Positions 3,315 to 36,271 of a DNA stretch of 43,265 bases are shown here, in pieces. The notes under the pieces were generated by a model. It searched no databases and was not told the origin of the DNA. It saw only the letters and a program-made list of their open reading frames with translations. The position numbers and the translations under genes were made by a program. Numbering within the stretch: the stretch's first letter is position 1; each line of letters opens with the position of its first letter. Source of the stretch: Escherichia phage MarieHeimVoegtlin_Bas70; sequence record PQ850619.1; one strand, given 5' to 3'.

Positions 3315-3336
3315 AGCCCCGAAAGGGGCTTTCTTA
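3315..3336 (+). terminator. hairpin with GAAA loop followed by TTCTT
   Basis: agcccc-gaaa-ggggct stem-loop followed by a short T-run, directly after the portal stop. Confidence 0.45.
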
Positions 3337-3373
3337 TAGTATGCTATTAACTTTAGCGCCACAGGGTTGATCT

Positions 3374-4878: not shown

Positions 4879-4883
4879 TAAAA

Positions 4884-4908
4884 GGCCCCATTATGGGGCC
4901 TTAGTTTT
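4884..4908. terminator. bidirectional intrinsic terminator
   Basis: ggcccc-attat-ggggcc hairpin flanked by AAAA on the 5' side and TTAGTTTT on the 3' side. Sits between convergent genes ending at 4878 (+) and 4908 (-). Confidence 0.6.
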
Positions 4909-5111
4909 CAACGGAATCTTGTGTTTAAATCCTGCTCATGGACAACCCTCAGAACAGTGTCATAATCCCCGTATCTTCCAGGTTCAAATATATCTAATGC
5001 CTTGTAAGCAGACATTGCGTCAGGGAAAACCTGCAGAACCTTTTTAACCCGGCACAAGTCACCGTCGAACTCTTCATCGAACTCTTGAACTACTTCGCAA
5101 ATTGCATACAT
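4908..5111 (-). CDS. hypothetical protein (antisense moron in head module)
   Basis: 67 aa. ATG with strong AGGAGGTG Shine-Dalgarno. Own promoter at 5136-5167 and terminator at 4884-4908. Opposite orientation to the surrounding structural genes. Confidence 0.55.
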   Translation of the reverse strand: MYAICEVVQEFDEEFDGDLCRVKKVLQVFPDAMSAYKALDIFEPGRYGDYDTVLRVVHEQDLNTRFR

Positions 5112-5135: not shown

Positions 5136-5167
5136 TGAATAGTACCCTATTATATTGGGGTGTGCAA
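5136..5167 (-). promoter_or_regulatory. sigma70-like promoter (TTGCAC-N17-TACTAT) with embedded AATAG-N4-CTATT palindrome
   Basis: Read on the minus strand: TTGCAC, 17-nt spacer accccaatataataggg, TACTAT. The 32-bp block is identical to 14240-14271. Confidence 0.55.
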
Positions 5168-5442
5168 ACTATTTATTTACGTATTCCAGTTATTCCTCCG
5201 AATTGTAAATGTTGGAATAAACTATTCGAATAGTTGACTTTTCACTAAAAATATGATAAGCTCCACCTGAGCTTGTGAAGTATGAACAAGCGACCGCGGC
5301 GCGGGCAGGTAACGGAGCGGGACGTAAGTCCTGAGTGTAGTTACGCTGACGCGTTCGGAAGGGCCATACTCTATTGCTTGTGTAAAAAGTAACTGGTTTA
5401 CTGAGATTACGCCGTTTCTATGTTTAAATGATAAGGACTAGC

Positions 5443-5469
5443 GCCCCGCTTTATGGCGGGGCTTTACTT
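5443..5469 (+). terminator. hairpin, weak terminator or attenuator
   Basis: gccccgc-tttatg-gcggggc perfect 7-bp stem followed by TTTACTT, just upstream of the spanin gene Shine-Dalgarno. Confidence 0.35.
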
Positions 5470-5486
5470 ATCGAGAAAGGGGAAAC

Positions 5487-5873
5487 ATGAATCTTAAAGC
5501 AACTGTCGTAGCAGGAGCATGTTTCATCATCCTGGTTTACGCACACGGCATCTACCAGTATCGCAGCGGATGGAACGAAGGCCGGGCTAATCTCGTTTCG
5601 CAGCAACAGCAGAAAGCACAGGCTGAGTTAGCGAAGAAAACACAACGGCAGCAGCAGGATGAATCGAAGGCCGCCGCCGCTGACAACGAAGGCAAGACGA
5701 AATCAGAGGTGATTACCCGTGAAGTCGTTAAGTACATTAAAACGCCTGGTCGCAGTGTGTGCGCTTTTGACCCTGAGCGCGTGCAGCTCAAGTCCCGCGC
5801 CGTCGCAAACGCCAACTCCATCCCCGGATACGACGATGATGCAGCCGCCGTGCAAACTGGCACCGCCAAGTAG
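5487..5873 (+). CDS. i-spanin (Rz-like inner membrane spanin)
   Basis: 128 aa. N-terminal transmembrane segment ATVVAGACFIILVYAHGIY. Then a Q/K/E-rich predicted coiled-coil periplasmic region. An overlapping +1-frame lipoprotein gene follows. Confidence 0.6.
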   Translation: MNLKATVVAGACFIILVYAHGIYQYRSGWNEGRANLVSQQQQKAQAELAKKTQRQQQDESKAAAADNEGKTKSEVITREVVKYIKTPGRSVCAFDPERVQLKSRAVANANSIPGYDDDAAAVQTGTAK

Positions 5874-5982
5874 CGACGCCGACGAGGATTTGGCTATCGA
5901 CGTTCAGAACGCTGAATGTGTACGGCAACTGAGGCTGAAAGTGTTTATGTTGCAGGATTACGTGAGGAATATTCTGGAATAG
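5719..5982 (+). CDS. o-spanin (Rz1-like outer membrane lipoprotein)
   Basis: 87 aa. GTG start with AGAGGTGA Shine-Dalgarno. Signal peptide ending in lipobox LSAC. Proline-rich mature region SSSPAPSQTPTPSP. Starts inside the i-spanin gene in another frame and extends past its stop. Confidence 0.55.
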   Translation: MKSLSTLKRLVAVCALLTLSACSSSPAPSQTPTPSPDTTMMQPPCKLAPPSSDADEDLAIDVQNAECVRQLRLKVFMLQDYVRNILE

Positions 5983-6064
5983 TTGCCTTGCATGTTGGAA
6001 TAATTTATTCTTGACATGTAAATCCGGGTGGCCCGGGTTCCAACGTCCAGGGGACATACTGACT

Positions 6065-6769
6065 ATGAATCGTTTTTTACGTTATCCGTTCCAGGAAGAA
6101 GCTGGGGCAGAAGATAAAGCTGGTGGCGGTGACGCGCCGAAAATGTTCACCGCTGAAGAAGTTCAGGCGCTGATTGAGAAAGAAGTTGCCGGGCTTAAGG
6201 CTAATCAGGAAGCATTGTTGGCGGAGAAGAAAGAAGCCGCTCGCAAAGCAAAAGAGGCCGAAGAAGAACGGCAGCGCGCGCACCAGGAGGCGTTAAAAGC
6301 CGCTGGTAAGATGGACGAGTTCGAAAAGACGATTCGTAGCCAGTATGACCCGGTGTTAGCCGAGAAAGACGGTCGCATCTCCAGAATGGCAGAGCGTATC
6401 CTCGGCAGCGAACGTAAAGCGGTGCTAGGCTCTTTCGCGGGTGACTTTATTACCCCGGAAGCAGTGGACATTCTTGCGCCGTTCGTTAAGACTGAGTTCG
6501 AAGGCGATGATGTGGTTACTAAGTTTGTTGGTGCAGACGGTAACGTAATCACGACTGACCCGGAACAGTTCCGCAAATACCTGCGCGAACACAAGGCGTT
6601 TTCGCATTTGATTAAAGCAAATGCAGCTTCCGGCGGCGGGGCTTCCGGTAGCAAAGGCGGCGGGGCCGCACCAGCGTTTAAAGACATGAGTGAAGCGGAG
6701 CGTATCGCTCTGTACGAATCGAACCCTGCCGAATTTGAACGGCAACTTAAAGCCCTGAGGAAAAAATAA
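6065..6769 (+). CDS. scaffolding protein (putative)
   Basis: ATG at 6065 with AGGGGA Shine-Dalgarno; track ORF begins upstream at 6011. Charged A/E/K-rich helical sequence. Immediately precedes the capsid gene with an ATGA overlap. Confidence 0.5.
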   Translation: MNRFLRYPFQEEAGAEDKAGGGDAPKMFTAEEVQALIEKEVAGLKANQEALLAEKKEAARKAKEAEEERQRAHQEALKAAGKMDEFEKTIRSQYDPVLAEKDGRISRMAERILGSERKAVLGSFAGDFITPEAVDILAPFVKTEFEGDDVVTKFVGADGNVITTDPEQFRKYLREHKAFSHLIKANAASGGGASGSKGGGAAPAFKDMSEAERIALYESNPAEFERQLKALRKK

Positions 6770-7818
6770 TGGCAATTACTACTATCGGCGACATCGTAAC
6801 TGGTAAAGAATCGGTAATCCTGTCCTACATGACAGAGGACCCGGTAGAGAAAACCGCGTTCTTCCAGTCCGGTATCCTTACCTCGACTCCGTATGCCGCC
6901 GCTATCGCAAACGGCCCGTCCAACAAAGCGGTCCTGCCGTACTGGAAAGCTATTGATACCTCTATCGAGCCGAACTACTCGAACGACGTATATCAGGACG
7001 TCGCCACCCCGCGTAACGTGCAAACCGGTGAGATGGATGTTCGCGTAGCTTACCTGAACGAAGGTTTTGGTCAGGCTGACCTGACGGTAGAACTGACCAG
7101 CCAGAATCCGCTGCAATCCGTGGCTTCCCGTCTGGATAACTTCTGGCAGCGTCAGGCACAACGCCGTCTTATTGCTACCGCGCTCGGTCTGTACAATGAC
7201 AACGTAGCGGCTACCGATGCATACCACGAGCAGAATGACATGGTGATCGACGTTTCCGCTACTATGGGCTTCGACTCCGGTGCGTTCATCGACGCTACCC
7301 AGACTATGGGTGACGCGCTGATGGGTAACGGCGGTGAAGTGCTGGGGGCTATCGCGATGCACAGCTTCGTTTATGCGCAGGCTCGTAAGCAGCAGCTTAT
7401 CGACTTCATCCGTGATGCTGACAACAACACCATGTTCGCCACCTACCAGGGCTACCGTGTGATTGTTGACGACAGCATGACCGTAGTCGGTACTGGCGGC
7501 AGCCGTAAGTTCATCTCCATCATCTTCGGCAACGGCGCTATCGGTTACGGTGAAGGTTCTCCGTCAAACCCGCTGGAATACGAGCGCGAAGCGTCTCGCG
7601 GCAACGGCGGTGGCGTCGAAACCCTGTGGACCCGTAAGACCTGGTTGCTGCATCCGTTTGGTTACAGCTTCACCAGCGCAGTAATCACTGGCAACGGCAC
7701 CGAGACTATCGCCCGCTCTGCTTCATGGCAGGACCTGGCGAACGCTTCCAACTGGAACCGCGTTGTTGAGCGTAAGCATGTACCGATTGCCTTCCTGGTA
7801 ACTGGTGTCGGGGCTTAA
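6769..7818 (+). CDS. major capsid protein
   Basis: 349 aa ORF after the scaffold gene, followed by a strong hairpin terminator. Call rests on position and size. Confidence 0.65.
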   Translation: MAITTIGDIVTGKESVILSYMTEDPVEKTAFFQSGILTSTPYAAAIANGPSNKAVLPYWKAIDTSIEPNYSNDVYQDVATPRNVQTGEMDVRVAYLNEGFGQADLTVELTSQNPLQSVASRLDNFWQRQAQRRLIATALGLYNDNVAATDAYHEQNDMVIDVSATMGFDSGAFIDATQTMGDALMGNGGEVLGAIAMHSFVYAQARKQQLIDFIRDADNNTMFATYQGYRVIVDDSMTVVGTGGSRKFISIIFGNGAIGYGEGSPSNPLEYEREASRGNGGGVETLWTRKTWLLHPFGYSFTSAVITGNGTETIARSASWQDLANASNWNRVVERKHVPIAFLVTGVGA

Positions 7819-7834
7819 GGTTAAGATATAATCG

Positions 7835-7862
7835 AGAGGGACTTCGGTCCCTCTTTTCATTT
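7835..7862 (+). terminator. intrinsic terminator (UUCG-loop hairpin plus T-run)
   Basis: agagggac-ttcg-gtccctct followed by TTTCATTT, directly after the capsid gene. Confidence 0.6.
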
Positions 7863-7877
7863 ACTAAGAGGTAAATT

Positions 7878-8176
7878 ATGGCTAAGACCGGAAAAGGCTT
7901 GCCTCGCAGCCTTCAGAATGTCGACTTCGGCGACTTTGACATCCCAGTAACGCCGGCTACTACCAGCGTAGTTGGTGGGGTTAAAAAGTCAGCTACTGTA
8001 GCCGCCCCGCGGCCATTACCGCTGCCGCCGGGTCGCAGTCCGCTGCGGACCCGACTAAGACCGAGTTCGATGCCCTTGTAGCCGAGTACAACAAACTTCG
8101 AACTGATGCAACCGCGCTGCGCACTACCGTAGCAAATCTGTTGACTGCGCTTAAAAATGCAGGAACTGTAAGCTAA
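7878..8176 (+). CDS. hypothetical virion protein with apparent -1 frameshift
   Basis: ATG at 7878 with AAGAGGTAA Shine-Dalgarno opens frame 0, which stops at 8081 after a Pro/Arg-rich tail. Frame -1 is open from 7985 to 8176 with a coding-like sequence (AITAAAGSQSAADPTKTEFDALVAEYNKLRTDATALRTTVANLLTALKNAGTVS), has no usable start codon, and ends right before the next gene's Shine-Dalgarno. Candidate slip site TTAAAAAG at 7981-7988. Confidence 0.4.
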
Positions 8177-8188
8177 AGGAGCTTAAAA

Positions 8189-8539
8189 ATGGTTGATGTA
8201 ATCAAACGTCGTATTACTGGTGTTTCTGATGATTCTCCTGCCGATGGTCAGGTTGAAATCGATATGGCGAATATCTCGCCCGCATCTTTTTCTACCGCAC
8301 TTGCCGCTACCACTACCAAGTCTACGGGGCAGACGATGACTCTTACCGTAGCCGTAACTGGCGGTCTGGCCCCGTACACATACCAGTGGTACAAAGATAA
8401 CAACGCTATCCCAGGCGCTACCGCCGCCACCTACGAGAAAACTTCGCTCGCTACTACCGATTCCGGTACGTATAAAGTGGTTGTCCACGATGTATATGGT
8501 AATATTATCTCCAGCAGCACCGTAGCAACTGTATCTTAA
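8189..8539 (+). CDS. Ig-like domain protein
   Basis: 116 aa. Segment GGLAPYTYQWYKDNNAIPG...GTYKVVVHDVYGN parallels the Ig-like segment of the 4417-4878 protein. AAGGAG Shine-Dalgarno. Confidence 0.5.
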   Translation: MVDVIKRRITGVSDDSPADGQVEIDMANISPASFSTALAATTTKSTGQTMTLTVAVTGGLAPYTYQWYKDNNAIPGATAATYEKTSLATTDSGTYKVVVHDVYGNIISSSTVATVS

Positions 8540-8575
8540 TACCGCGGCCCTTCGGGGCCGTAATAAGGAAAGGTC

Positions 8576-8755
8576 ATGGCAGATAATTATGTAATCCGCG
8601 AAAAGTACACCCACGTTGATGTTGTTGACGGTCAGGTTATGCCCGTTCGCGGTGTTGTAGAAGCGGATGAACTGGTAGCGGTTCAACCGGACAACGAAGA
8701 AGCGCACAACAACGGCGGTGGCACTAAGCGTCGCCGCCGTAAGTCAGAGGAATAA
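8576..8755 (+). CDS. hypothetical small protein (59 aa)
   Basis: ATG with AAGGAAAGG Shine-Dalgarno. Basic C-terminus KRRRRK. Tightly packed between neighbouring genes. Below the ORF-track length cutoff. Confidence 0.4.
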   Translation: MADNYVIREKYTHVDVVDGQVMPVRGVVEADELVAVQPDNEEAHNNGGGTKRRRRKSEE

Positions 8756-8758
8756 TTT

Positions 8759-9271
8759 ATGCCGCTAATCGTGGAAACTGGGGCAATCGTCCCGAATGCC
8801 GACAGTTACATTAGTCTGGCTGACGCCCGCGCGTTAGCGGCTAATTATGGCCTTGAGCTACCGGAAGACGATACCGCCGCGGAGGTGGCCTTGCGTAACG
8901 GCGCCACTTATGTCGGGCTTGCGGAACCGCAGATGTGCGGTCGCCGGGTATCCGCCGAACAGTCTCTGGCGTACCCACGTACGGGAACAACACTGAACGG
9001 CTTCACTGTAGCGGATAATGATATTCCGTCGCAGTTAATCCGGGCGCAGGTAATCGCCGCTGTTACATATGGCGCAGGAACTGATGTTCGGGCTAACTCT
9101 GATGGGCGTTCCGTGCAGACTGAGCGCGTAGAAGGCGCGGTGACCGTGACATACTTCAACAACGGCAACAGTGGCGCTACGACCGCGATTACCGCTGCTG
9201 ACGACGCTTTACGCCCGTTATTGTGTGGCGGTCTTAACAATGGTTTCTCGTTTAACGTGTACCGGGGTTAA
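8759..9271 (+). CDS. head-tail adaptor / connector-like protein (putative)
   Basis: 170 aa ORF in the head-to-tail joining region. Assignment from gene order only. Confidence 0.4.
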   Translation: MPLIVETGAIVPNADSYISLADARALAANYGLELPEDDTAAEVALRNGATYVGLAEPQMCGRRVSAEQSLAYPRTGTTLNGFTVADNDIPSQLIRAQVIAAVTYGAGTDVRANSDGRSVQTERVEGAVTVTYFNNGNSGATTAITAADDALRPLLCGGLNNGFSFNVYRG

Positions 9272-9273
9272 AA

Positions 9274-9888
9274 ATGGCGAAGACTAAATCAGAGATATTC
9301 ACGCTAATCGGTTCCGAGCTACCGGACAACACGACCGGACTTATTACGCCTGCGAAGTTGCGCAGGGTATTAACCCCGATGGCTGACTCACCTATTTACG
9401 CCACTCCGGGTGTTAAAGAGGTTGAAGTTCTCCGCGCTGCGTCGACAGTAGCGCAAGCGCCTACCGCAGTAGATACGGCGTTGCAGTTAACTTTCGGCGC
9501 TGCGCAGGGTAGTGCATCCGACCCGGTAATGATTAATGCCGCTGGCCTGGTTACATTTAACACCGCTGGCAACTACGCCGTTCGCATCAAGTTACAGGCG
9601 GGGCGCACAGGGGCCAGCGGCACGTCCATCCTGTTATCGCGCATTCTTCTTAACGGAGCTCAATACGGCTCACCAGCTGCCACGAAACTGGTAAGCGCCG
9701 ATGTAACAATCCCGATTGAATCCCGCGTCGTTATTAACCCAGCCGCAGGCCAGACGTTTGCCGTTCAGATTATGCGGGATAGCGTCGGAACTAACTTCGG
9801 TGGTGTATACCCGCAAGTAGCTACCGTAACCGCATGGGGTACAGCACCATCCGCGCTACTGGTTATCTCGAGACTGGAGGCCGCGTAA
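9274..9888 (+). CDS. hypothetical structural protein
   Basis: 204 aa ORF in the structural operon, tightly spaced after the previous gene. Confidence 0.45.
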   Translation: MAKTKSEIFTLIGSELPDNTTGLITPAKLRRVLTPMADSPIYATPGVKEVEVLRAASTVAQAPTAVDTALQLTFGAAQGSASDPVMINAAGLVTFNTAGNYAVRIKLQAGRTGASGTSILLSRILLNGAQYGSPAATKLVSADVTIPIESRVVINPAAGQTFAVQIMRDSVGTNFGGVYPQVATVTAWGTAPSALLVISRLEAA

Positions 9889-9997
9889 TGGAGGTTAAAA
9901 AACGCCTAGTAATAAAACGTAGTTACGGTTATAAGAAGCGGTTGTCTGATGCAAGTAAGGAATTAGCCAACATTCTTTCGACCAAGAGAGGGTTAGA

Positions 9998-10357
9998 ATG
10001 AGCACCGCTTTCAGTAAACGTATGCAAGGCGTAGGCACACGCCTGCTAACCAAGTTCGGCAGCACGGTATCTCTCGTCCGCGCTGGCTCGAAAGTGTGGG
10101 ATGAAGTTCTCGGTGAATACGTCTGGTCTGCGGATGAAGTGTTGCCGTTGAAGGCTGTTCCGGTTCCGGTAAACGCGGGACTGGTAAACGGTACGACGAT
10201 TCAGGCTGGCGACATGATTGTTAAAGCGGATTGCAGCGTCGTTCCGAAGATGGAAGACAAAGTGCAATTCGGTGGCGAGCAGTGGTCTGTCGTAGCCATT
10301 GAGAAGAAGATGGTTAACGATGATGTCGTGGCATACTTTATTCAGGTGAGAAAATGA
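9998..10357 (+). CDS. head closure / head-tail joining protein (putative)
   Basis: 119 aa ORF. Overlaps the next gene (ATGA). Assignment from position. Confidence 0.4.
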   Translation: MSTAFSKRMQGVGTRLLTKFGSTVSLVRAGSKVWDEVLGEYVWSADEVLPLKAVPVPVNAGLVNGTTIQAGDMIVKADCSVVPKMEDKVQFGGEQWSVVAIEKKMVNDDVVAYFIQVRK

Positions 10358-10854
10358 GTTTCGCGCTTGATGTCTCTAAGTTCGTGGAAAAGGCGAAGAA
10401 GAACCCTGAGAAGGTGATGCGTCAGGTGTCTATCAAGCTGTTTTCCGCTATTATAAAGGCGAGTCCGGTGGATACTGGCCGCTTTCGTATGAACTGGATG
10501 GCCTCTGGCGGTACTCCTGCTTCCGGTACGAGTCGCGGTACCGACCCTAGCGGGGCGAACGCGATAAGCGCTATGGTTTCTACGGTGTCAGGTTTACCCG
10601 ACTGGAGCGAGTTTACCCTGACAAATAACCTGCCGTATGCGGAAGTTATAGAGTTCGGGGGTTACGCTACTGGCTTCCACGGCCCTAAGCGCCCTTCTAA
10701 CTTAGGCTCTAAATTTGTTGGCCCATTGAGGCCGAAAGCGCCCAGCAGAACAACCACAGACGGATATTCCCTTCAGGCTCCGCAAGGTGTTGTCCGGGTT
10801 AACGTTCAGCGATTCAATAAACTGCTCGAAGAAGAAGCGAGGAAGTATAAATAA
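10354..10854 (+). CDS. tail completion / neck protein (HK97 gp10-like)
   Basis: 166 aa with the PVDTGRFRMNW motif typical of the HK97 gp10 family. Located between head-joining genes and the major tail gene. Confidence 0.5.
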   Translation: MSFALDVSKFVEKAKKNPEKVMRQVSIKLFSAIIKASPVDTGRFRMNWMASGGTPASGTSRGTDPSGANAISAMVSTVSGLPDWSEFTLTNNLPYAEVIEFGGYATGFHGPKRPSNLGSKFVGPLRPKAPSRTTTDGYSLQAPQGVVRVNVQRFNKLLEEEARKYK

Positions 10855-11267
10855 TGGGCTACTTTGAGGACTTAACAAAAGCGTTCGATGTTCCGCTGGT
10901 AGCCTTCGGAACCGCCAACGGCATCAAGGTTGCGCTTGAAAACATCGACGCGCCGACGTCAACCGATACGCCGTATCTGGCGAGTTACATGCTACTGGCA
11001 GATACCGAGCAGGCGGATTTGTTCTTCACTGAGCAACGCTCTGGTATTTATCAGGTAGACATTAACTACGCATCGGTGAAAGGTAGCGCGCCAATCAATA
11101 AAATGGCAGACTTACTTAACACGGCGTTTAAAGCAGGTAAGTCATTTTCGCGTAACGACATCTGCGCCGAGGTTCAATCGGTTAGCCTGGGGCCGCTGAT
11201 TGTAGAAAACGGATGGGCCAAACGACCATTGTCAATTAACTTTATTGCATTCACCAAGAGGCTGTGA
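10854..11267 (+). CDS. tail terminator-like protein (putative)
   Basis: 137 aa ORF immediately upstream of the major tail protein gene, overlapping both neighbours. Confidence 0.4.
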   Translation: MGYFEDLTKAFDVPLVAFGTANGIKVALENIDAPTSTDTPYLASYMLLADTEQADLFFTEQRSGIYQVDINYASVKGSAPINKMADLLNTAFKAGKSFSRNDICAEVQSVSLGPLIVENGWAKRPLSINFIAFTKRL

Positions 11268-12436
11268 ATATGGCTACAACTCCTTTTAAGGGCGCGAATA
11301 CCGCGCAATTCTATGTGGCGGAAACTACCCCTGGCGTAACACCGACTAACCCGGTATGGTCGCCGTTGCGTAACACGGGCGGCGTTCCCGCTGTAACCCG
11401 CGATGCACTGACTTCCAACGAACTGGACGGCAGCCGTGAAACTACATCCATCCGAACCGGTAACAAGCAGGTTAGCGGGGAGTATGCCATCGAACTTAGC
11501 TCTCGTAGCCAGGATGATTTCCTTGCGGGAGCGATGACTTCTACGTGGCAAGCTGGGGTAGAGATTACTGGCGCCGAAATTACGGTCGCCCCAGCAGGTA
11601 AAACATTCACCCGCGCTGCCGGTAGCTTCATTACTGACGGTGTAGAAGTTGGCGACCTTATTGCGTTCACCGACTTAACCGGCGACAACGCAAAACCGTT
11701 TATCGTGACCGCGGTTTCCGCTCTGGTAGTTACGGGCGCAGGTATTCAGCACACGCTGACAGCAGAGACAGTAACCACTGACGCAAAAACTGGCGACAAG
11801 CTGGAAACCGGTAACGCGTGTAAGACGTTCTCCATCCTGACGTGGTTCAAGGGCCAGTGTGGTAACCCGGACGCGTACATGCTGACCAAAGGTGTGGAAA
11901 TCTCTGGCTTTACCGTAGAGCAGGCGGTTAACGCCATGGTCACCGGCAGCTTCCCGTTCATCGGCCTGAGTCAGGAGATTCTTACCGCGCCGCCGTCTGG
12001 CTCTGATTTCTCTCGGGTTACGTTCACCGATGAGCCGTTCTCGTCGGTAGATGTGTCGGTGTTCGATGGCTCCACGCCGTTGCGTTGCGATACTCTCACC
12101 ATCACCAACGACAACGGAGCTTCCGCGCAGTTCGAACTCGGTAACAGTAGCGTGGCGTTCGTCGAACGTGGACGCGCAGCTAACACATTCTCTATCTCTG
12201 GCAAGCTGTACGACATGGCGATGATTCAGAAGTTTATCAACGAGCAGCAGGTAGAGATTAACTCTATTCTGGCAGGGGTAAACGGGGCTATGTCTTTCAG
12301 TTTGAAACGTGCAGAGCTTACGGCGGTTACACCTGAGATTGGTGGGCCTGAGTCAATCACTCAGTCCATTGAAGGCCAGGCTACCGGCAATCAGTACCAG
12401 TCGTCTATCGTAATTCAACGTATCACCTACGCATAA
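11264..12436 (+). CDS. major tail (tube) protein
   Basis: 390 aa T/S/G-rich ORF, last gene before a strong terminator and upstream of chaperone and tape measure genes. Confidence 0.55.
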   Translation: MNMATTPFKGANTAQFYVAETTPGVTPTNPVWSPLRNTGGVPAVTRDALTSNELDGSRETTSIRTGNKQVSGEYAIELSSRSQDDFLAGAMTSTWQAGVEITGAEITVAPAGKTFTRAAGSFITDGVEVGDLIAFTDLTGDNAKPFIVTAVSALVVTGAGIQHTLTAETVTTDAKTGDKLETGNACKTFSILTWFKGQCGNPDAYMLTKGVEISGFTVEQAVNAMVTGSFPFIGLSQEILTAPPSGSDFSRVTFTDEPFSSVDVSVFDGSTPLRCDTLTITNDNGASAQFELGNSSVAFVERGRAANTFSISGKLYDMAMIQKFINEQQVEINSILAGVNGAMSFSLKRAELTAVTPEIGGPESITQSIEGQATGNQYQSSIVIQRITYA

Positions 12437-12440
12437 AACT

Positions 12441-12466
12441 AAGGCCCCTTTCGGGGCCTTTTTCTC
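12441..12466. terminator. bidirectional intrinsic terminator
   Basis: aaggcccc-tttc-ggggcctt hairpin with AAAACT on the 5' side and TTTTTCT on the 3' side. Sits between convergent genes ending at 12436 (+) and 12465 (-). Confidence 0.7.
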
Positions 12467-12695
12467 ACTCATCAATATTACTTCGATACTCCCGTAACTT
12501 CTCCAGACTTTCAATTGCTTCTGCTAAGTCGGTTCCGGTGTCCTTATGCCCGCGAAGACCCATGCACAATAACTTCTTCAATGCGTGCTGTAGTGCGGGG
12601 TCACGGATGTCGAAGGCACGGAGAACATCGTAAACGTCTACGGTCATAGTGCTGCCGTGAGTGTTTGTCATTGTTCGGTTGTATTTTGAAGTCAT
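12465..12695 (-). CDS. hypothetical protein (76 aa), cassette member
   Basis: ATGA overlap with the upstream phosphoesterase gene, so likely co-translated. Last gene before the terminator. Confidence 0.5.
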   Translation of the reverse strand: MTSKYNRTMTNTHGSTMTVDVYDVLRAFDIRDPALQHALKKLLCMGLRGHKDTGTDLAEAIESLEKLREYRSNIDE

Positions 12696-13822
12696 CCCAG
12701 CATCTCCGGTGAAATAGTTAAACGTGCGACCTCGCCATATTCGGCGCTATAAGTAATTACATTTGCACTACGGCCTGACATCCACCCGCCGCGGGAGGCA
12801 TAGGCGTCTTTAGCCGCTAAGGTGCGGTGTTGCTCAACAATCATGTTACGGCTTTCTACAATCTTCTGGTGGTGCAGGTGGCCTACGTGGGCGTAGCTAT
12901 AGACACTCTCACCGAACGCTTTGCGGAATTTGGCAATCATAACCGGTTCGATAGCATCGAATCGCGCCTTATGCCCGTGGTGAAAGAACAACGTCGTTTT
13001 TCCGTGTTGCACCATCTTGTAAACATCCGGCGACGTATCGACAATCACTCGGCTGTCGTTCGAATATAAAACTGTGAACATTTCAGCCAGCCATACAGAG
13101 CCTACAGGGTCATGGTTCCCCTGTACGATAAGCAAGCGAACATTTTTATGTTTAACCAGTGCCATATCTACAACACGGCGTACCATACGAATCATGTAGC
13201 GGACGAGTTTCTGGTAGCGAGTGTCTGCGTCCAACACGTGACGCGACTCAGGTGTAACGGCATCCAGACTATCGAAGTGCGCGAAATCACCCAGCAGGTT
13301 AATAACTCCTGTTCCTGCATCCGGTGCTTTCTGAAACGCCGCGTCGAACCAACGAGAGAACAGGTCTTCCGCAATCTTTATATCCCAGTCGTCGCCGCTC
13401 TCGTCGGCCCAGGCAAGCATACCGAGATGGAAATCAGATACCGTGTAAAGATTGAGTAGCTTGTCGTCGCGTTTGGCTCGAGTCGCTTTAGCCGGCGCAA
13501 CTGGCGTAATCTCTGACTTCATGCCTTCAATCACGGCTTTCATCAACTCGACCTGACGTTCAGCGTCGGTGTCTGTCTTAACCCATTGCAACTTAGTATT
13601 GCCGAACTCGTCTACCAGAGACGACGTCCCTTTAATCTTGTAGCCGTCTGGGACAAGGTGGCTAACGTCACGCCCGTGGCCTACACCTTTCTTAGCCAGC
13701 TTCGCTTTACGGATACGAATAACTCGGTCTGAGATGCCGTATTTACGGGCGATGTCTACATTCTTCATCCCGGCGTTCAATTCTTCCTGTAACTGTTCGT
13801 CGGTTATTTTCTTCTGGGCCAT
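12692..13822 (-). CDS. HTH domain-calcineurin-like metallophosphoesterase fusion
   Basis: 376 aa. N-terminal helix-turn-helix NVDIARKYGISDRVIRIRKAK. Then ordered metallophosphoesterase motifs: SDFH (DxH), LLGDFAHFD (GDxxD-like), QGNHD (GNHD/E), HHGH, VGHLHH (GHxH). Encoded antisense to the tail genes. Confidence 0.7.
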   Translation of the reverse strand: MAQKKITDEQLQEELNAGMKNVDIARKYGISDRVIRIRKAKLAKKGVGHGRDVSHLVPDGYKIKGTSSLVDEFGNTKLQWVKTDTDAERQVELMKAVIEGMKSEITPVAPAKATRAKRDDKLLNLYTVSDFHLGMLAWADESGDDWDIKIAEDLFSRWFDAAFQKAPDAGTGVINLLGDFAHFDSLDAVTPESRHVLDADTRYQKLVRYMIRMVRRVVDMALVKHKNVRLLIVQGNHDPVGSVWLAEMFTVLYSNDSRVIVDTSPDVYKMVQHGKTTLFFHHGHKARFDAIEPVMIAKFRKAFGESVYSYAHVGHLHHQKIVESRNMIVEQHRTLAAKDAYASRGGWMSGRSANVITYSAEYGEVARLTISPEMLG

Positions 13823-13887
13823 GCTTACTTCCTCGTGTTTAGGATTTGTCCTATTTAACCACAGTGGATTCCTTTAAATAAAGGCAA

Positions 13888-14214
13888 CTATTTACTTTCT
13901 GCGCCTATCGCCCACCCTGTCATTACCATTTGCAGACGGGTGGCTGTCAGTAGGCTATAGAAAGCATCTCCGTTTTTCTCTACCGAACGTATCACTGTGT
14001 AGGTTACGGCCTGCGGGGGTAGGCCCGATTTACCAACCTCCACGGCGGCCTCACACTCGCGAACTGTAGAGTCCTTGAACGCCTTTACAATAGTAGGGTC
14101 GGCTTTATCAAGCACACCAGAAGTCATAAGAACAGATTCACTAAATACCTGTTCGCACGGGGCTCCAAAAGTAGCAAAAGACATAAAACCCAGAGCTAGT
14201 ACTAATTTACGCAT
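13888..14214 (-). CDS. small secreted/periplasmic protein (108 aa)
   Basis: N-terminal signal-peptide-like MRKLVLALGFMSFATFGA. GAGGAA Shine-Dalgarno. Own promoter at 14240-14271. Confidence 0.55.
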   Translation of the reverse strand: MRKLVLALGFMSFATFGAPCEQVFSESVLMTSGVLDKADPTIVKAFKDSTVRECEAAVEVGKSGLPPQAVTYTVIRSVEKNGDAFYSLLTATRLQMVMTGWAIGAESK

Positions 14215-14239
14215 AATTATTTCCTCAGTAAGTTACATG

Positions 14240-14271
14240 TGAATAGTACCCTATTATATTGGGGTGTGCAA
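14240..14271 (-). promoter_or_regulatory. sigma70-like promoter (TTGCAC-N17-TACTAT) with embedded AATAG-N4-CTATT palindrome
   Basis: 32 bp identical to 5136-5167. Positioned about 25 nt upstream of the 13888-14214 start codon on the minus strand. Confidence 0.55.
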
Positions 14272-14378
14272 GTAGTGTGCTAGAATAAGTTTGCGCCTAG
14301 TGTCGCACACGAAAAGCGGGTGGTTCCCGCCTGGCGCATTAACCATAACCAGTAACCTCTTAACCAAAGGACTAAAGA

Positions 14379-15157: not shown

Positions 15158-17462
15158 TACGGCTTCCCTAATCGCCAGAGTAAAAACAGAAGGTGCTGAC
15201 GTAGCTGCCAAACAGCTTGACGCTATGGCGTCGTCTGCAGACCGCGCTGATACCGCGGTAAACAAGCTGACTCCGGACGTTAATAAAGTAAACTCCGCTA
15301 CGTCTAAAGCGGCTTCTGACGGTTTCGCTAAGTTCCGTAACGCTGCCGGGCAGGTAGGCTTCCAGGTGCAGGACATGGTTGTCCAGCTGCAATCCGGTAC
15401 GTCAGCATTTGTGGCAATAGGCCAGCAAGGTTCGCAACTTGCGGGTGCTTTCGGCCCTGGTGGTGCTGTGCTTGGGGCCGTAATCGCACTAGCGTCGGCT
15501 GTTGGTGGAGTACTGTATAAATCACTAACCGAAGCAGAAGGCAGTTCAAAAGACCTCGAAGCCGCGCAGAAACAGTTAAAAGATACTTTCCAGCAAACGG
15601 CATCTGGCTCTCTCGAGCTGACAGACGGCCTTATCCAGCTTACCCAAATCAGCAGAGAAGCAGCGGAGACTCAGCTTGCTCTGGCTAAGGCTAACGCGGA
15701 CCTTATCGCGCAGCAAACCGCTAAAGCTGTTCGTGAAGATGCCGAATCATGGGAAACGTGGAAAGCCTCCACGGCGTCGGCGATTAGCCAGTATGATGCA
15801 TTAGTCTCTAAGGGCGCAGATGTAGGCGACACATTAGAAAAACTCGGCGGCACTTACGAGGGCAACATCGTAGGCGTCAACATGCTGGCGCAGAATATCG
15901 CGGAGCTTAGCAGTAAGTTCGGAGTTAACCGTGACCAGGCGCTGGAGATGATAGCGGCGCAGAGTGCGTTTAACAAAGAGCCAACCGCCGAGAATGCCCG
16001 TCGCATCGCCGATGTGTTTACCGACTGGCTCGGTAACACAAAACAGTTGAACCCGGAACTTATCCGCCTGACGGACAACGCCAACAAGAACGCCACGGCA
16101 CTGGAGAACGCGGAGAAGTCAGCAAACGCGGCGGCAGAGGCCCAAAAGAATCTTGGTCGCAACGTCAACTCAACCACGCAGAGATTCCAGGAACAGAACG
16201 AAGCTATCGTCAAAAACCAGCAAATCGCCATCTTAAGCGACCGTGAGCGTATCCGGGCGCAAGCTGAACTTGATAAACAGGCGTTCGCTAAACGTGAAGC
16301 CGTCACCAAAGAACAGATAGCCGCGTATAATGCGGCCCGCGACGCGGAAGCGCAGCAAGACATCGCCCGCATTGACAAGACCGAGAAAGAGAAGGCCGAC
16401 CGCGAGGCTAAATCGAACGAGGAACGTCTGGCGGCACAAGCCAAACGCGAAGAAACAGCGGCACAACGTCAGAAAAAAGCGGCGGAAGATTTCCTGGCTA
16501 CTGTCGACCGCACAACCGGAGACGAAATTTCACGTATCACAGCGGCAGAAGAACAGAAACTGGCGAAACTTGAAGAGTTCAACCGCGCCGGAACGATAAG
16601 CCAGCAGCAGTACGAAAACGCCAAAACTCAAATTATGCTCACCGCCGAGCAGGCCAGACAGGAAGAACTGGATAAGAAAAGAAAAGAGCAGCAGGAAAAG
16701 CAGCAGAAAGGCGACGACTTCATGGCCCAGATTATGGGTCAGAACGCCGCTGAGCTTGAGCTTCTCGACATCCAGGAACAGCAGAAACTGTCGGTAGCAG
16801 ATAAGTACCGCGAGCAGGGTTTGATTAGTGAGAAGCAGTATCAGGCTGCGCTTAATGCCATCAACGAGCAGTACGCCACGAAGCGTGCCGACGCAACGGC
16901 AACGGCCTTCGGTAACATGGCCTCAAACATCGGTTCGGCTTTGGGCGAGGCTTCTGGCGCGTACAAGGCATTCGCTATCGTGCAGGCCACTATAGCCACG
17001 TACACCGCGGCTATTGAGGCGTATAAGTCAACAGCGGCTATCCCTGTAGTTGGCCCGTTCCTGGCTCCTGTAGCTGCCGCTGCTGCCGTTGGGGCGGGTA
17101 TGGCGCAGATTTCCGCTATCAGGTCCGCACGTGAACAGGGCGGACAGTTATCCGCGGGGCAGGCTTCAACCATCGCCGAACGCGGTAAACCAGAAGTTAT
17201 CATGCCCGCTGGTGCGTCACGTGTACGCACCGCACAGCAGATGAAAGAAATTATGGGGCAAAACGGGTCTTCTTCCGGACCGTCTAATGTTACTATCGTA
17301 AACAACACGAGTTCTCAAATCGGCAACGTATCCACTGAGCAAGATGATGAAGGCCGTTTGCGTATCATCATCGAGGAGCAAGTGGCTGCCTCTTTGCGGA
17401 ACAGTAACAGTAAGATTAGCAAGGCCCGCAAGGCCACAAGAAATGCGCCGGGGTTTAAATAA
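15150..17462 (+). CDS. tail tape measure protein
   Basis: 771 aa from ATG 15150 (track ORF starts at TTG 15135). Long A/Q/E/K-rich predicted coiled coil. Directly after the chaperone pair. Confidence 0.8.
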   Translation: MADTASLIARVKTEGADVAAKQLDAMASSADRADTAVNKLTPDVNKVNSATSKAASDGFAKFRNAAGQVGFQVQDMVVQLQSGTSAFVAIGQQGSQLAGAFGPGGAVLGAVIALASAVGGVLYKSLTEAEGSSKDLEAAQKQLKDTFQQTASGSLELTDGLIQLTQISREAAETQLALAKANADLIAQQTAKAVREDAESWETWKASTASAISQYDALVSKGADVGDTLEKLGGTYEGNIVGVNMLAQNIAELSSKFGVNRDQALEMIAAQSAFNKEPTAENARRIADVFTDWLGNTKQLNPELIRLTDNANKNATALENAEKSANAAAEAQKNLGRNVNSTTQRFQEQNEAIVKNQQIAILSDRERIRAQAELDKQAFAKREAVTKEQIAAYNAARDAEAQQDIARIDKTEKEKADREAKSNEERLAAQAKREETAAQRQKKAAEDFLATVDRTTGDEISRITAAEEQKLAKLEEFNRAGTISQQQYENAKTQIMLTAEQARQEELDKKRKEQQEKQQKGDDFMAQIMGQNAAELELLDIQEQQKLSVADKYREQGLISEKQYQAALNAINEQYATKRADATATAFGNMASNIGSALGEASGAYKAFAIVQATIATYTAAIEAYKSTAAIPVVGPFLAPVAAAAAVGAGMAQISAIRSAREQGGQLSAGQASTIAERGKPEVIMPAGASRVRTAQQMKEIMGQNGSSSGPSNVTIVNNTSSQIGNVSTEQDDEGRLRIIIEEQVAASLRNSNSKISKARKATRNAPGFK

Positions 17463-18862
17463 TGAGCGACTTATATTTCCCACGTAGCCTTAAGCCGGTG
17501 GTATCGAAAGGCTACTCAATGACCAGACGCAACAACGTCTGGAGTGTAGATTTAGCCGGTGGCGGAGTGCGTCAAGGCCGTGACACGTATTATGATGTGT
17601 TCCCAATAAGCGTAACTCTGATTACATCTGCACTAGGGCGACAGGCGTTCCTGTCGTTCCTTGAGAAAGTGGACGGCGGCGCGTCAAGTTTCTGGATGGC
17701 GCATGACTTCGGCATGGGTATTGAAGATTATCAGGTAACCATCACGTCCACCATCGCGGAGTCCACCGAAGACGGCATTAACTGGACGATTACTTTCACG
17801 GCAACCGCCGAGAAATCCCCGTTCCAGGACCTCGAGAACCAGTGTCTTGTCAATAATCTGCCGGATTTGTATGGTTGCTATGGTGACGGGCTGGGGTGTT
17901 TCCTTAAAGCCTACGGAACCGCGCAATCAACGTTTCCACGAATCTGGAGTAATGAAGGCCCTGCCGGATATCCGCCGATTAACCTTCTGGCGTCGACTCT
18001 TGATAGCCGCATTGTGTATGAAGGGCCGCAGGTTTATTACATCAACCGCAACGGCAATCTTGTGCAGTCCGCCACTAATGAATGGCCTCTTACGTTTATT
18101 GACGGAACTGCAGTTGGGCGTGTGCCGCCGGAAAAGGCTGCTACCAATGTGGTAGAACATTCTAACAACTTACTATCTACATCATTTTCACGTGCCAGAA
18201 CAACAACCACGGCGAGTTCTTTGGCGTTATTCCAAGAAACTTATGCTGCTAAATTAACCGCAACGTCGGTATCAGGTAACCATTATATAAACAAGGCAGA
18301 GGCCCCAGAACAAGAAACAAGATACTCTATTAGTGCTATTATAAAAGCAGATGAGTACCAGTCGGCAGCGGTAGCCATCGGCAACCGAGCCGCTTTAGAT
18401 AATTTCCAGTATGCCTATGTTGACTTAGCCTCCGGCTATTTGATATCAGGCGACACCTCAAGGTCGTTCGTAAGCAATCTTGGTGGTGGGTGGTATCACG
18501 TTTCAATGTCAGCGGACACTAACGACTCCGGCGGATTGATTTATTCGCAGATAAACATGTTGTCTCCGTCTAACTCCCTCACCTTCACAGGGGATGATGT
18601 CAGTGGGTTCATTATAGCCCTAATCCAGATGGAGCCTTCAGAGTTTGCCTCCTCCCCGATAGTGACCGAGGAGTCACCGGTAACTCGTCCAACGGCATCA
18701 GCAAAAGTGGCAATGAACGGCGCGACAAGCATCGACATTACCTATTCCGACGGCTCTGTGGTAAACGTTCTGGCGGCAGATGATTACGCAACCATCCCGC
18801 AGGCTGATTCCGCGTGGGGTAGCAAGTACATCACTCGTATTGATTTTAATGTGGACGGTTAA
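17462..18862 (+). CDS. minor/distal tail protein
   Basis: 466 aa ORF immediately after the tape measure gene (TAATG overlap). Confidence 0.5.
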   Translation: MSDLYFPRSLKPVVSKGYSMTRRNNVWSVDLAGGGVRQGRDTYYDVFPISVTLITSALGRQAFLSFLEKVDGGASSFWMAHDFGMGIEDYQVTITSTIAESTEDGINWTITFTATAEKSPFQDLENQCLVNNLPDLYGCYGDGLGCFLKAYGTAQSTFPRIWSNEGPAGYPPINLLASTLDSRIVYEGPQVYYINRNGNLVQSATNEWPLTFIDGTAVGRVPPEKAATNVVEHSNNLLSTSFSRARTTTTASSLALFQETYAAKLTATSVSGNHYINKAEAPEQETRYSISAIIKADEYQSAAVAIGNRAALDNFQYAYVDLASGYLISGDTSRSFVSNLGGGWYHVSMSADTNDSGGLIYSQINMLSPSNSLTFTGDDVSGFIIALIQMEPSEFASSPIVTEESPVTRPTASAKVAMNGATSIDITYSDGSVVNVLAADDYATIPQADSAWGSKYITRIDFNVDG

Positions 18863-26836: not shown

Positions 26837-27121
26837 CTAACTATAATAGTTCGCTATTAGGTCGTCAACCTGTTTGAACGAACCAACGACAAAAACATTT
26901 GCACCACGTTTACGCATCCGCTCGTGCTCTCGTATCTGGTGCGGGTCTGGCTTCGTGTTTTCGTCTTTCTTAACCTCGACGAACCAGACGATGCCGCCAG
27001 GGAGAATTACCAGCAGGTCGGGAGCGCCGGAACGCCCCTCGTAGGAAAGTTTACGAACGAGGCCCCCAAGGGCCTCAAATCGCTCTTTTGCGTATTTCTG
27101 GATGCGGCCCTCTTTAGTCAT
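26837..27121 (-). CDS. VRR-NUC domain nuclease (PD-(D/E)xK)
   Basis: Start taken at internal ATG 27121 (track ORF extends to 27301 from a TTG). Motifs GAPDLLV and VWFVEVKK fit the VRR-NUC D...E.K core. Confidence 0.55.
   Translation of the reverse strand: MTKEGRIQKYAKERFEALGGLVRKLSYEGRSGAPDLLVILPGGIVWFVEVKKDENTKPDPHQIREHERMRKRGANVFVVGSFKQVDDLIANYYS
26840..26868 (-). promoter_or_regulatory. sigma70-like promoter (TTGACG-N17-TATAGT) with AATAGTTCGCTATT palindrome in spacer
   Basis: Minus-strand reading gives TTGACG, 17-nt spacer, TATAGT. Same architecture as the promoters at 30401-30429 and 32950-32978. Confidence 0.55.
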
Positions 27122-30400: not shown

Positions 30401-30429
30401 ACTATAATAGCTAACTATTCAGGTGTCAA
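30401..30429 (-). promoter_or_regulatory. sigma70-like promoter (TTGACA-N17-TATAGT) with AATAGCTAACTATT palindrome in spacer
   Basis: Minus-strand reading gives TTGACA, 17-nt spacer, TATAGT. Embedded in the 3' end of the 30415-30618 ORF. Confidence 0.55.
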
Positions 30430-32949: not shown

Positions 32950-32978
32950 ACTATAATAGCGAACTATTCACATGTCAA
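32950..32978 (-). promoter_or_regulatory. sigma70-like promoter (TTGACA-N17-TATAGT) with AATAGCGAACTATT palindrome
   Basis: Minus-strand reading gives TTGACA, 17-nt spacer, TATAGT. Divergent from the HTH regulator gene at 33043. Confidence 0.6.
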
Positions 32979-33042
32979 TGGGCTTTTCTAAAATAATTAA
33001 TATGGTACTATTCACATATCAACTGACTAAGGAGTAATTGAC

Positions 33043-33258
33043 ATGCAACCATCTGAACTAGGTATCCGTGTAGAACAACGCCGTAAAGAACTCGGCATCT
33101 CCCAGCGCCGTTTGGCGGCCCTGACCGGCGTTTCCCAGGGCGCGATTAACCAACTGGCACTTGGAGTAACTCAGGACGTCCGCCCGGCAACGCTGTTCAA
33201 ACTGGCGGAAGTTCTGGAAGTAGACGCCAAGTGGCTGGCGTTAGGTGAAGGGGCTTAA
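33043..33258 (+). CDS. XRE-family HTH transcriptional regulator (Cro/CI-like)
   Basis: 71 aa. Classic HTH ISQRRLAALTGVSQGAINQL. AAGGAG Shine-Dalgarno. Sits in a divergent promoter region carrying the repeated palindrome. Confidence 0.7.
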   Translation: MQPSELGIRVEQRRKELGISQRRLAALTGVSQGAINQLALGVTQDVRPATLFKLAEVLEVDAKWLALGEGA

Positions 33259-36174: not shown

Positions 36175-36205
36175 TTTTATATCTCCTGTTTGTTTGGTGA
36201 AACTG

Positions 36206-36234
36206 AGTATAGGATAGCGGGAATGTAAAAGCAA
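36206..36234 (-). promoter_or_regulatory. sigma70-like promoter (TTGCTT-N17-TATACT)
   Basis: Minus-strand reading gives TTGCTT, 17-nt spacer, TATACT, about 30 nt upstream of the HTH gene start. Confidence 0.45.
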
Positions 36235-36271
36235 CCAATCTCTGTAATATTTAATCTTTACAAAAATGTTA

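Follow-up and report, generated by a model that had tools for sequence, protein, structure and literature searches.

The DNA analysed here, 43,265 nt from Escherichia phage MarieHeimVoegtlin_Bas70 (PQ850619.1) and called the window below, is the complete genome of a Kagunavirus, a virulent siphovirus of the Guernseyvirinae with a genome of 43 kb. Over the 12 kb tested, its identity to Escherichia phage AnnaReinhart_Bas75 is 98%, and there are hundreds of relatives from Escherichia and Salmonella. The packaging, head and tail operons run rightward, the replication operons run leftward (24.4-32.9 kb and 33.3-36.2 kb), and a rightward cluster of small genes begins, together with the lysis genes, at 36.6 kb. 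Guernseyvirinae are described as lytic, and the annotation of Bas75 holds no integrase, dedicated recombinase or lysogeny module. Two leftward units sit among the rightward structural genes, and each is headed by the same 32-bp sequence, TGAATAGTACCCTATTATATTGGGGTGTGCAA (+ strand as written), which occurs exactly at 5136-5167 and 14240-14271. This 32-bp block, the symmetric element embedded in it and the genes that lie behind it in related phages are the subject of this report.

The 32-bp block and the units that it heads

Blocks of this kind (class I) are assigned by synteny to five slots. Slot A is flanked by the portal and head-morphogenesis genes, slot B by those for decoration and spanin, and slot C by those for the major tail protein and the tail chaperone; slots D and E belong to the region of small genes. 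The slot B unit of the window consists of the block, an open reading frame (ORF) of 67 amino acids (aa) on the - strand (4908-5111), and a bidirectional terminator hairpin, AAGGCCCCATTATGGGGCCTT (4882-4902), at which the rightward packaging/head operon and the leftward cassette both stop. The unit in slot C is longer. Its block is followed on the - strand by a 108-aa ORF (13888-14214), a 376-aa metallophosphoesterase or 'DNA repair exonuclease' (12692-13822; phrog_704), which is the conserved second gene of this operon, and a 76-aa ORF (12465-12695), the last gene; the unit ends in a - strand terminator hairpin, AAGGCCCCGAAAGGGGCCTT (12441-12460), with the same stem sequence as the hairpin of slot B. 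Both are GC-rich hairpins of the AAGGCCCC...GGGGCCTT type, and a related one lies at 3315-3330.

The first gene of each unit differs from its surroundings in base composition: GC content is 43.1% in the 67-aa ORF versus 53.5% in both flanking genes, and 48.6% in the 108-aa ORF versus 53-54% in its neighbours. No Pfam or NCBIfam family was found for either protein. AlphaFold2 predicts a confident small alpha/beta fold for the 67-aa protein (predicted local distance difference test, pLDDT, 90), and a Foldseek search with this model found no PDB analogue, its matches being uncharacterised small phage proteins only. The 108-aa protein has an N-terminal segment resembling a signal peptide and belongs to phrog_14165, a family of no known function; its model, made from a single sequence, is weak (pLDDT 70). 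For the 76-aa ORF, the only matches are to the last third, at the C-terminus, of longer PHROG families (phrog_2452, and phrog_17613 'ATPase'). In phage K1H, the equivalent end of the operon holds an ATP-binding protein as well as a polynucleotide kinase; a proposal that the 76-aa ORF is a remnant of this ATP-binding protein was withdrawn, as BLASTP shows no similarity.

The exact identity of the two copies over 32 bp, with which the original prediction began, is borne out, and 100 shuffles yielded no match to the 32-mer. Read in the orientation of the genes, the block is TTGCACACCCCAATATAATAGGGTACTATTCA, or TTGCAC-N17-TACTAT, and it extends from the -35-like hexamer exactly to 3 nt beyond the -10-like hexamer. 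Thus, in slot B the -35 hexamer TTGCAC occupies 5167-5162 and the -10 hexamer TACTAT 5144-5139, while in slot C they occupy 14271-14266 and 14248-14243. A third copy on the opposite strand, in slot D, differs at two positions and leads the rightward small-gene cluster that begins at 36656; it runs from 36593 to 36624 (-35 at 36593-36598, -10 at 36616-36621), so that the end previously given, 36621, falls 3 nt short. The fourth copy (slot E, + strand, 38223-38254) has diverged at seven positions, reads TTGCGC-N17-TACTAT and lies upstream of a 49-aa DUF7170 gene (38283-38432). The 3' part of the block, TACTATTCA, recurs upstream of the gene at 33043, and three additional promoters hold the same core in the opposite orientation.

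The position of the block relative to the genes is equally regular. The distance from the end of the block to the ATG is 24 nt for the 67-aa ORF and 25 nt for the 108-aa ORF, in agreement with the predicted value of about 25 nt, and 31 nt for the rightward ORF in slot D (36656-36874). Indeed, in nearly all sites of the window and of 68 related genomes or fragments, a Shine-Dalgarno (SD) sequence and ATG follow 22-32 nt past the block. The flanks of the two perfect copies, which had been described as unrelated, are not wholly so: both 5' untranslated regions (UTRs) have TAACTTA and the SD sequence in common.

This anatomy agrees with the proposal that the block is a promoter. The hexamers and their 17-bp spacing have sigma-70 geometry in all four copies, the block has the T-12, A-11 and T-7 of a -10 element, and we found no alternative promoter candidate for the leftward cassette genes in the window. 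The annotation of Bas75 contains no RNA polymerase or sigma factor. In a Pfam scan of ten window ORFs (among them all those of at least 400 aa, except the 775-aa tape-measure and 493-aa portal ORFs), no RNA polymerase domain was found; the matches were to terminase, tail, tailspike, SNF2 helicase, DNA polymerase A, PD-(D/E)XK nuclease, primase-helicase and methylase domains, and the 466-aa ORF at 17462-18862 had no Pfam match. Therefore, host sigma-70 RNA polymerase would be the sole plausible reader, and the prediction that the block is a promoter is well supported by anatomy and by comparison of genomes.

The AATAG-N4-CTATT dyad and its candidate regulators

Embedded in the block is a 14-bp dyad, AATAG-N4-CTATT, at 5138-5151 in slot B, 14242-14255 in slot C, 36609-36622 in slot D and 38239-38252 in slot E. 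The dyad is strongly over-represented: the window contains 7 exact dyads compared to 0.06 expected from Markov shuffles, and 5 dyads with one mismatch compared to 1.0 expected. Four of the seven exact dyads are those in the class I blocks. The other three are inverted relative to transcription and lie in the spacers of TTGACA- or TTGACG-N17-TATAGT promoters (class II), which are the top-scoring leftward sigma-70 matches of the genome. These class II promoters, all on the - strand, are at 32950-32978 (TTGACA; dyad 32955-32968), for the leftward replication/recombination operon from 32921; at 30401-30429 (TTGACA; dyad 30406-30419), upstream of the genes for single-stranded DNA-binding protein and DNA polymerase; and at 26840-26868 (TTGACG; dyad 26845-26858), upstream of genes for a 63-aa protein, a C5-methylase-like protein and an SNF2 helicase. 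All seven exact dyads fall between the -35 hexamer and the predicted start, and the dyad is present in every predicted promoter of the antisense-cassette, early small-gene and replication operons. Two of the one-mismatch dyads are at 32999-33012 (+ strand), overlapping the TGgTACTAT extended -10 element of the XRE-type gene at 33043-33258, and at 3335-3348, where a vestigial dyad, TATAGTATGCTATT, lies beside the hairpin at 3315-3330 in an empty slot A.

Similarly, each of eight complete genomes from both genera, Kagunavirus and Jerseyvirus, has 5-9 exact dyads at orthologous promoters. Fifty of 51 dyads lie within a promoter-like site (the exception is at 40792 in M01), and nearly all have one direction that faces an SD sequence and an ORF. 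What varies is the relation of the dyad to the promoter elements: its first position lies 4, 7 or 10-11 nt past the -35 hexamer, and it is paired with a -10 hexamer of TATAGT or TATATT, TATTAT, or TACTAT. The Jerseyvirus slot C promoter, which was found by synteny and not by motif, is TTGCAT-N17-TATTAT, with both the -10 hexamer and the register changed and the exact dyad retained. Within the dyad, the central 4 nt vary freely and both arms are conserved, and in slots B and D an additional AATAG half-site adjoins the -35 hexamer. The dyad is thus a symmetric, over-represented site that is confined to core promoters and is conserved independently of the polymerase contacts, in both orientations, at several offsets and with varied -10 hexamers. 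An invariant dyad of variable register and both orientations within the footprint of RNA polymerase points to a repressor operator, and this pattern of register and orientation suits neither a site for an activator nor a -10 by-product. The dyad is most likely the operator of a small phage-encoded helix-turn-helix (HTH) repressor.

The alternative that deserves most weight is that the dyad is the by-product of a divergent promoter, with a -10 element on each strand; the block would then drive transcription leftward into the cargo and also rightward, to restart the structural operon that the terminator of the cassette interrupts. Indeed, wherever slot A is occupied in complete genomes (3/3), the reverse strand carries TTGATA/TTGATG/TTCAAT-N17/18-TATATT/TATTAT, located 55-59 nt upstream of the head-morphogenesis gene; the + strand of slot C in the window has GTTACA-N17-TATATT facing the tail genes, and for both perfect copies the reverse score equals the forward score. 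However, -10 elements occur in three registers relative to the CTATT arm (TA|CTAT, C|TATTAT and CTAT|TATAGT) while the dyad is invariant, most slot B and slot D copies, as well as the slot C copies that precede Imm-type genes, have a poor reverse -35 or none, and class II sites retain an arm that is useless as a -10 element (AACTAT, CGCTAT). We therefore consider it unlikely that divergent transcription accounts for the dyad. Some copies may restart the rightward operon that they interrupt, a secondary and uncertain property that would leave the dyad unexplained.

The slot A sites in question are at 3579 in VSt10, 4510 in M01 and 19642 in STP03, and in each a good promoter of the form TTGATA/TTGATG-N17/18-TATATT, on the strand opposite to that of the cargo, faces the head-morphogenesis gene. 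The slot A cassette appears, from these sequences, to supply a restart promoter for the operon that it interrupts.

If the dyad is a repressor operator, its ligand might be either of the two small HTH proteins encoded in the window. One, the 71-aa XRE-type protein (33043-33258, + strand), is encoded back-to-back with the 32978 promoter and has the one-mismatch dyad over its own extended -10 element. The other is a 60-aa protein of the HTH_17/excisionase family (35992-36174, - strand), whose predicted promoter (36234-36206) has no dyad. Identity between the two genera is 82% for the HTH_17 protein versus 48% for the XRE-type protein, and the XRE-type proteins of the two genera differ in the likely recognition helix. 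RNA-seq of phage K1B4 places four genes in an 'early' class, among which the HTH_17 homologue is the only one with a functional annotation (PMC12645636). Because the two genera share one class I core, these identities and the 'early' class favour the HTH_17 protein, and we infer that it is the preferred candidate for binding the dyad, with the XRE-type protein as the alternative. A search for distant XRE homologues, made to see whether they co-occur with the dyad, returned Kagunaviruses almost exclusively, and the two remote matches had no dyad, and a PDB sequence search with the HTH_17 protein gave generic HTH matches only.

Conservation of the block and turnover of its cargo

A BLAST search of phage records with the 32-nt block found it in 260 records, all of the Kagunavirus/Jerseyvirus type, from Escherichia, Salmonella and similar hosts, at 2-4 places per genome in Kagunaviruses and 1-3 in Jerseyviruses. 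In seven complete relatives, the copies are at the same syntenic positions, and both genera have the same class I core. Moreover, the sequence upstream of the block is characteristic of the slot across genomes irrespective of the gene that follows: the signature is TAAAAATAATAT-TTGCAGACACC for slot A and CTAGCACACTAC-TTGCACACCCC for slot C. Because these signatures are kept per slot, conservation is orthologous and not paralogous, and the upstream flank together with the first ~11 nt of the block belongs to the slot, whatever the cargo.

These observations bear directly on the suggestion, made in the original prediction, that perfect identity reflects a recent duplication. If the two perfect copies had arisen by duplication or gene conversion within the window genome, with no function in common beyond that, we would expect what is indeed seen in the window, 32 of 32 positions identical between slots B and C, where in many relatives the two copies differ at 1-4 positions near the -35 hexamer. 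Furthermore, the slot B copy of the window may be a 'C-type' variant gained by recombination. However, the block is at the same slots in both genera, in some 260 records, and the slot A and slot C copies keep their slot signatures, with orthologues closer to each other than paralogues. A recent origin as the whole explanation of the repeat is thus very unlikely; the greater similarity of orthologues points to long-term purifying selection on an old element and not to a young repeat.

In contrast to the block, the ORF behind it varies from phage to phage. We scanned IMG/VR for exact matches to the 16-nt core and obtained 61 loci, of which four were unrelated chance matches and the rest were Guernseyvirinae; the flanks of every site were mapped onto the window and the first ORFs were clustered. 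Homology upstream extends right to the block, while downstream homology restarts only at the hairpin (window ~4908, 3288, and 14237 or 13854). In slot B, the hairpin at 4882-4902 is the 3' limit of cassette homology. Slots A and B together hold at least 20 unrelated cargo families among the 68 related genomes or fragments. In slot C, the first gene alternates among the 108-aa signal-peptide protein and, in other Kagunaviruses, a 63-aa Imm-type superinfection-immunity protein or a 97-aa membrane protein, and the phosphoesterase behind it is conserved. Cargo further includes an endonuclease VII-like protein, but most cargo has no known function. Slots can also be vacant. Slot B is wholly missing in ER1 and STP03, where the hairpin adjoins the late-promoter region, and slot A is vacant in the window, where the hairpin and the one-mismatch dyad at 3335-3348 remain.

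The same cargo can be found in more than one slot. Six families are shared by slots A and B: an N6/N4 DNA methylase, a clamp-like protein of 173 aa, the 67-aa family, and families of 94, 57 and 61 aa. When the versions of these six in slot A and slot B are compared, nucleotide homology begins ~10 nt upstream of the -35 hexamer and ends 25-28 nt past the stop codon; it thus spans the cassette from promoter through hairpin. One cargo can have different types of 5' UTR and different variants near the -35 hexamer, which argues for crossovers inside the conserved ~60 bp. The 67-aa family itself is found only in contigs of Guernseyvirinae size and in three genomic contexts. In addition to slot B of the window, it is found in some contigs in slot A, behind a block of the slot A type, and in others downstream of DNA polymerase with no class I block. 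In two Logan contigs (L108, 2435-2500, and L109), a homologue of the 67-aa gene lies just after, and in the same direction as, the DNA polymerase gene, with a one-mismatch dyad (AATAGTGTTGTATT) and a hairpin ahead of it.

The idea of a portable promoter cassette thus stands in part: a promoter and a terminator do bracket differing genes, and the same genes do occur in different slots, but the slots are standing. The alignment of related genomes likewise does not favour a block that travels with its gene, since the upstream flank and ~11 nt of the block stay with the slot and the 67-aa gene also occurs without a block. The accurate statement, judged from these alignments, would be that ORFs are exchanged into standing promoter-terminator slots and that the block is not carried along with each gene.

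An exchange of this kind raises the question of whether the block is primarily an attachment site for cassettes, a target of recombination or homing, and not a transcription signal. Cassette homology that starts at the block and stops at the hairpin, the endonuclease VII/HNH-like genes among the cargo, and the presence of one cargo in different slots are all expected from such a target. Nevertheless, we regard this explanation as highly improbable: no integrase or dedicated recombinase is annotated, the orientation of the block and its distance to the SD sequence and ATG are fixed, the same core is found in the promoters of essential replication operons that do not vary, and short-homology recombination at any conserved sequence suffices for exchange.

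Taken as a whole, the observations make it probable that the block combines a promoter for non-late genes of the phage family with an operator dyad for an HTH protein, and that it heads slots with exchangeable contents. The block would be the core of a family-specific host sigma-70 promoter for the non-late genes of Guernseyvirinae, and a small HTH repressor bound at the dyad would coordinate or shut off all dyad promoters. The perfect copies would head self-contained leftward units made up of a promoter, a 5' UTR with an SD sequence, one or more ORFs and a GC-rich hairpin terminator; as such units are wedged between rightward structural operons, their genes would be transcribed independently of their neighbours. 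The conserved promoter/UTR on one side and the terminator hairpin on the other would act as short homology arms, and recombination between co-infecting relatives would replace, delete or move the ORF between them.

Several points weigh against this interpretation. TTGCAC and TACTAT each agree with the consensus at just 4/6 positions (because of this, a simple 9-of-12 promoter scan misses the blocks), and the spacer of the block contains a perfect TATAAT that the interpretation does not account for. The dyad could partly stem from -10-like hexamers on both strands, as several copies score equally in reverse, and conservation is the sole tie between either HTH protein and the dyad. The large set of 100 sites was collected with a regular expression on the core, so that part of the invariance of the core in that set is ascertainment; the synteny-defined sites and the enrichment test are free of this bias. 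Finally, the only Kagunavirus transcriptome, that of K1B4, has coarse time points that span multiple infection cycles and gives no 5' ends, and in it the first gene of slot C shares a 'late' class with genes for methylase and DNA polymerase, apart from the structural genes around it (PMC12645636). This class fits co-regulation with replication genes, or a shared type of promoter, and not a simple 'early' label; it is compatible with the interpretation but not decisive. The supplements of that study hold no temporal classes per gene (PMC12645636), and our guess is that its 11 'late' genes are those of slot C and the distal replication genes, as the count fits.

A more elaborate version can be put forward only tentatively. 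Blocks and hairpins might serve as 'landing pads' for an exchange that resembles that of integrons and uses no integrase. Accessory ORFs (methylases, superinfection-immunity proteins, nucleases and genes of no known function) would circulate by short homology between pads and between phages, and each incoming ORF would automatically be wired into a regulon controlled by one HTH protein through AATAG-N4-CTATT. The same HTH protein might even switch on the late genes by antitermination, through everted half-sites (AACTATTCGAATAGTT) at the 5234 promoter described below.

Earlier descriptions, related systems and neighbouring elements

The motif itself has been published before. In the genome paper of phage fBC-Eco01, seven PHIRE matches, PP1-PP7, are labelled 'Phage RNAP promoter' (PMC9825357, Table S2), with the consensus tgAATAGTa-ccTATTat-T; PP1 and PP2 are both TGAATAGTACCCTATTATAT (PMC9825357). 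We find that the positions of PP1-PP7 match slots A, B and C, the 26.8-kb site, the XRE promoter, and slots D and E, so that these are the same element as the 32-bp block, and that HP1 and HP3 in the same table are the window promoters at 5234 and 36272 (PMC9825357). Seven PHIRE promoters were likewise reported for vB_EcoS-Golestan (PMC7203180). The fBC-Eco01 paper gives 20-mers only, with the attribution to a phage RNA polymerase, whereas the sigma-70 geometry, the dyad, the two orientations, the slots and the turnover of cargo are absent from it. As far as could be found, the operator interpretation and the turnover of cargo in slots are new, and they are fresh instances of known principles.

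A promoter for a phage RNA polymerase is barely credible: PHIRE does detect the motif as a phage-specific repeat, and its conservation is much tighter than that of usual host promoters, but the cognate enzyme expected of a T7- or SP6-type single-subunit system is found neither in the Bas75 annotation, which also has no sigma factor, nor among the scanned ORFs, the geometry is canonical for sigma-70, and the core is inverted inside perfect TTGACA-N17-TATAGT promoters, which a single-subunit polymerase promoter would not tolerate.

The closest mechanistic analogue of the slot units is the promoter-early stem-loop (PeSL) cassette of T4-like phages, in which sigma-70-like early promoters and stem-loops flank ORFans and mediate their shuffling (Arbiol et al. 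2010, PMC2839356; Comeau et al. 2014, PMC4122927). In both systems, strong, conserved sigma-70-like promoters and GC-rich stem-loop terminators bracket small ORFans (here, the class I blocks of slots A-E and the hairpins), relatives differ by insertions, deletions and replacements whose limits coincide with the motifs, and the cargo, insulated from adjacent genes, either comes with expression signals of its own or acquires them. The presence of the same ORF at several positions is likewise found here, in the six families common to slots A and B. However, the T4-like motifs are composite, intergenic and arranged in tandem arrays within hyperplastic regions, an arrangement that we do not find in Guernseyvirinae, where promoter and hairpin are at opposite ends of single antisense cassettes within the structural operons of a 43-kb siphovirus. 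Moreover, the Guernseyvirinae block holds a dyad in common with essential replication promoters.

The original prediction called the two leftward genes morons. Lambdoid morons, a term associated with Juhala et al. and Hendrix et al., both in 2000, reportedly have their own promoter and terminator, are inserted where relatives have two adjacent genes, have a GC content below that of their flanks, and are present in some relatives and absent from others. The definition of a moron refers to temperate phages, with expression from the prophage. The 67-aa gene resembles a moron in that the slot B unit has its own promoter and terminator between otherwise adjacent genes, in its GC content (43% versus 53% in the flanks) and in its presence or absence among relatives, since the slot is vacant in ER1 and STP03. 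The name does not suit the second unit, which is a conserved three-gene operon in which the first gene alone is variable. Furthermore, unlike the carriers of morons, Guernseyvirinae are virulent, and their promoters and terminators belong to conserved slots and are shared with the non-late regulon of the phage, not imported with each gene. Lambdoid morons are also discussed by Arbiol et al. (PMC2839356).

The putative operator can be compared with a third system, and the likeness here is one of regulation. Phage lambda Cro is a small HTH repressor that acts at OR and OL, where the operator is within the promoter. As in lambda, a short dyad overlaps core elements of the promoters of several early operons, a divergent promoter pair with two dyads lies beside a small HTH gene (32950-33012), and a small HTH gene is transcribed early. 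The Guernseyvirinae dyad differs in being a putative site, with 5-bp arms and a 4-bp centre; the phage is virulent and has no counterpart of CI, and the better-conserved candidate regulator is of the excisionase-type HTH_17 family and not of the Cro/XRE fold.

If this interpretation is correct, a compact, family-wide promoter/operator would delimit the non-late regulon of Kagunavirus and Jerseyvirus phages, which are popular for therapy and as small chassis for synthetic biology. The slots would then be natural, transcriptionally insulated insertion sites for payloads between structural genes, and their contents would provide a short list of fast-turnover accessory genes with likely anti-defence or exclusion functions. 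The idea behind PeSL cassettes, that regulatory motifs act as recombination linkers, would be extended from T4 to small siphoviruses, and the published attribution of the motifs to a phage RNA polymerase would be corrected.

Several non-coding elements lie near the blocks. A perfect 16-bp palindrome at 5220-5235, AACTATTCGAATAGTT, consists of the half-sites of the dyad in everted arrangement and adjoins a promoter, TTGACT (5234)-N17-TAAGCT (5257-5262), with an upstream TG. TATGAT was rejected as the -10 element of this promoter, since its spacing would be only 12 nt; TAAGCT is correctly spaced and conserved. A leader of ~190 nt follows the promoter and is closed by an intrinsic terminator (5443-5462), with the genes for spanin, scaffold and capsid directly behind it. 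The non-coding stretch 5168-5486 is 94-98% identical between the window and Jerseyviruses, compared to ~70-85% for adjacent coding DNA, and its fold z-score is -1.9; a 36-aa ORF annotated there in Bas75 is probably spurious. By analogy, the layout resembles lambda PR'-tR', at which late transcription is controlled by antitermination.

A strong rightward promoter, TTGAAA-N18-TATAAT, at 36272 (HP3) is followed by ~230 nt without a credible ORF (36272-36527), and the slot D block comes directly after. Two hairpins lie in these ~230 nt, a long one (~36329-36360) and one that resembles a terminator, GGGCAGGCTTAAGCCTGCCC followed by TTT (36501-36523); the stretch could be a small RNA, a leader, an origin or a packaging region. 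Rfam gave no match at gathering thresholds for the whole window, and permissive scans of 5160-5500 and 36180-36660 gave chance-level matches only.

Between the slot C block and the tail-chaperone gene lies a hairpin, GCGGGTGGTTCCCGC (14317-14331), that is kept in both genera. As it is followed by TTTTC on the - strand, it resembles a leftward terminator upstream of the leftward promoter, and its role could be either that of an insulator or that of a 5' stem of the tail mRNA. Finally, the promoter TTGACT-N17-TATATT at 41337-41365 is among the best sigma-70 matches of the genome. The right half of the 32-bp block, as read on the + strand, recurs as the -10 region of this promoter, CCCTATTATATT, and a one-mismatch dyad overlaps its -35 hexamer. 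The promoter precedes a run of small genes that continues across the window ends into the terminase genes.

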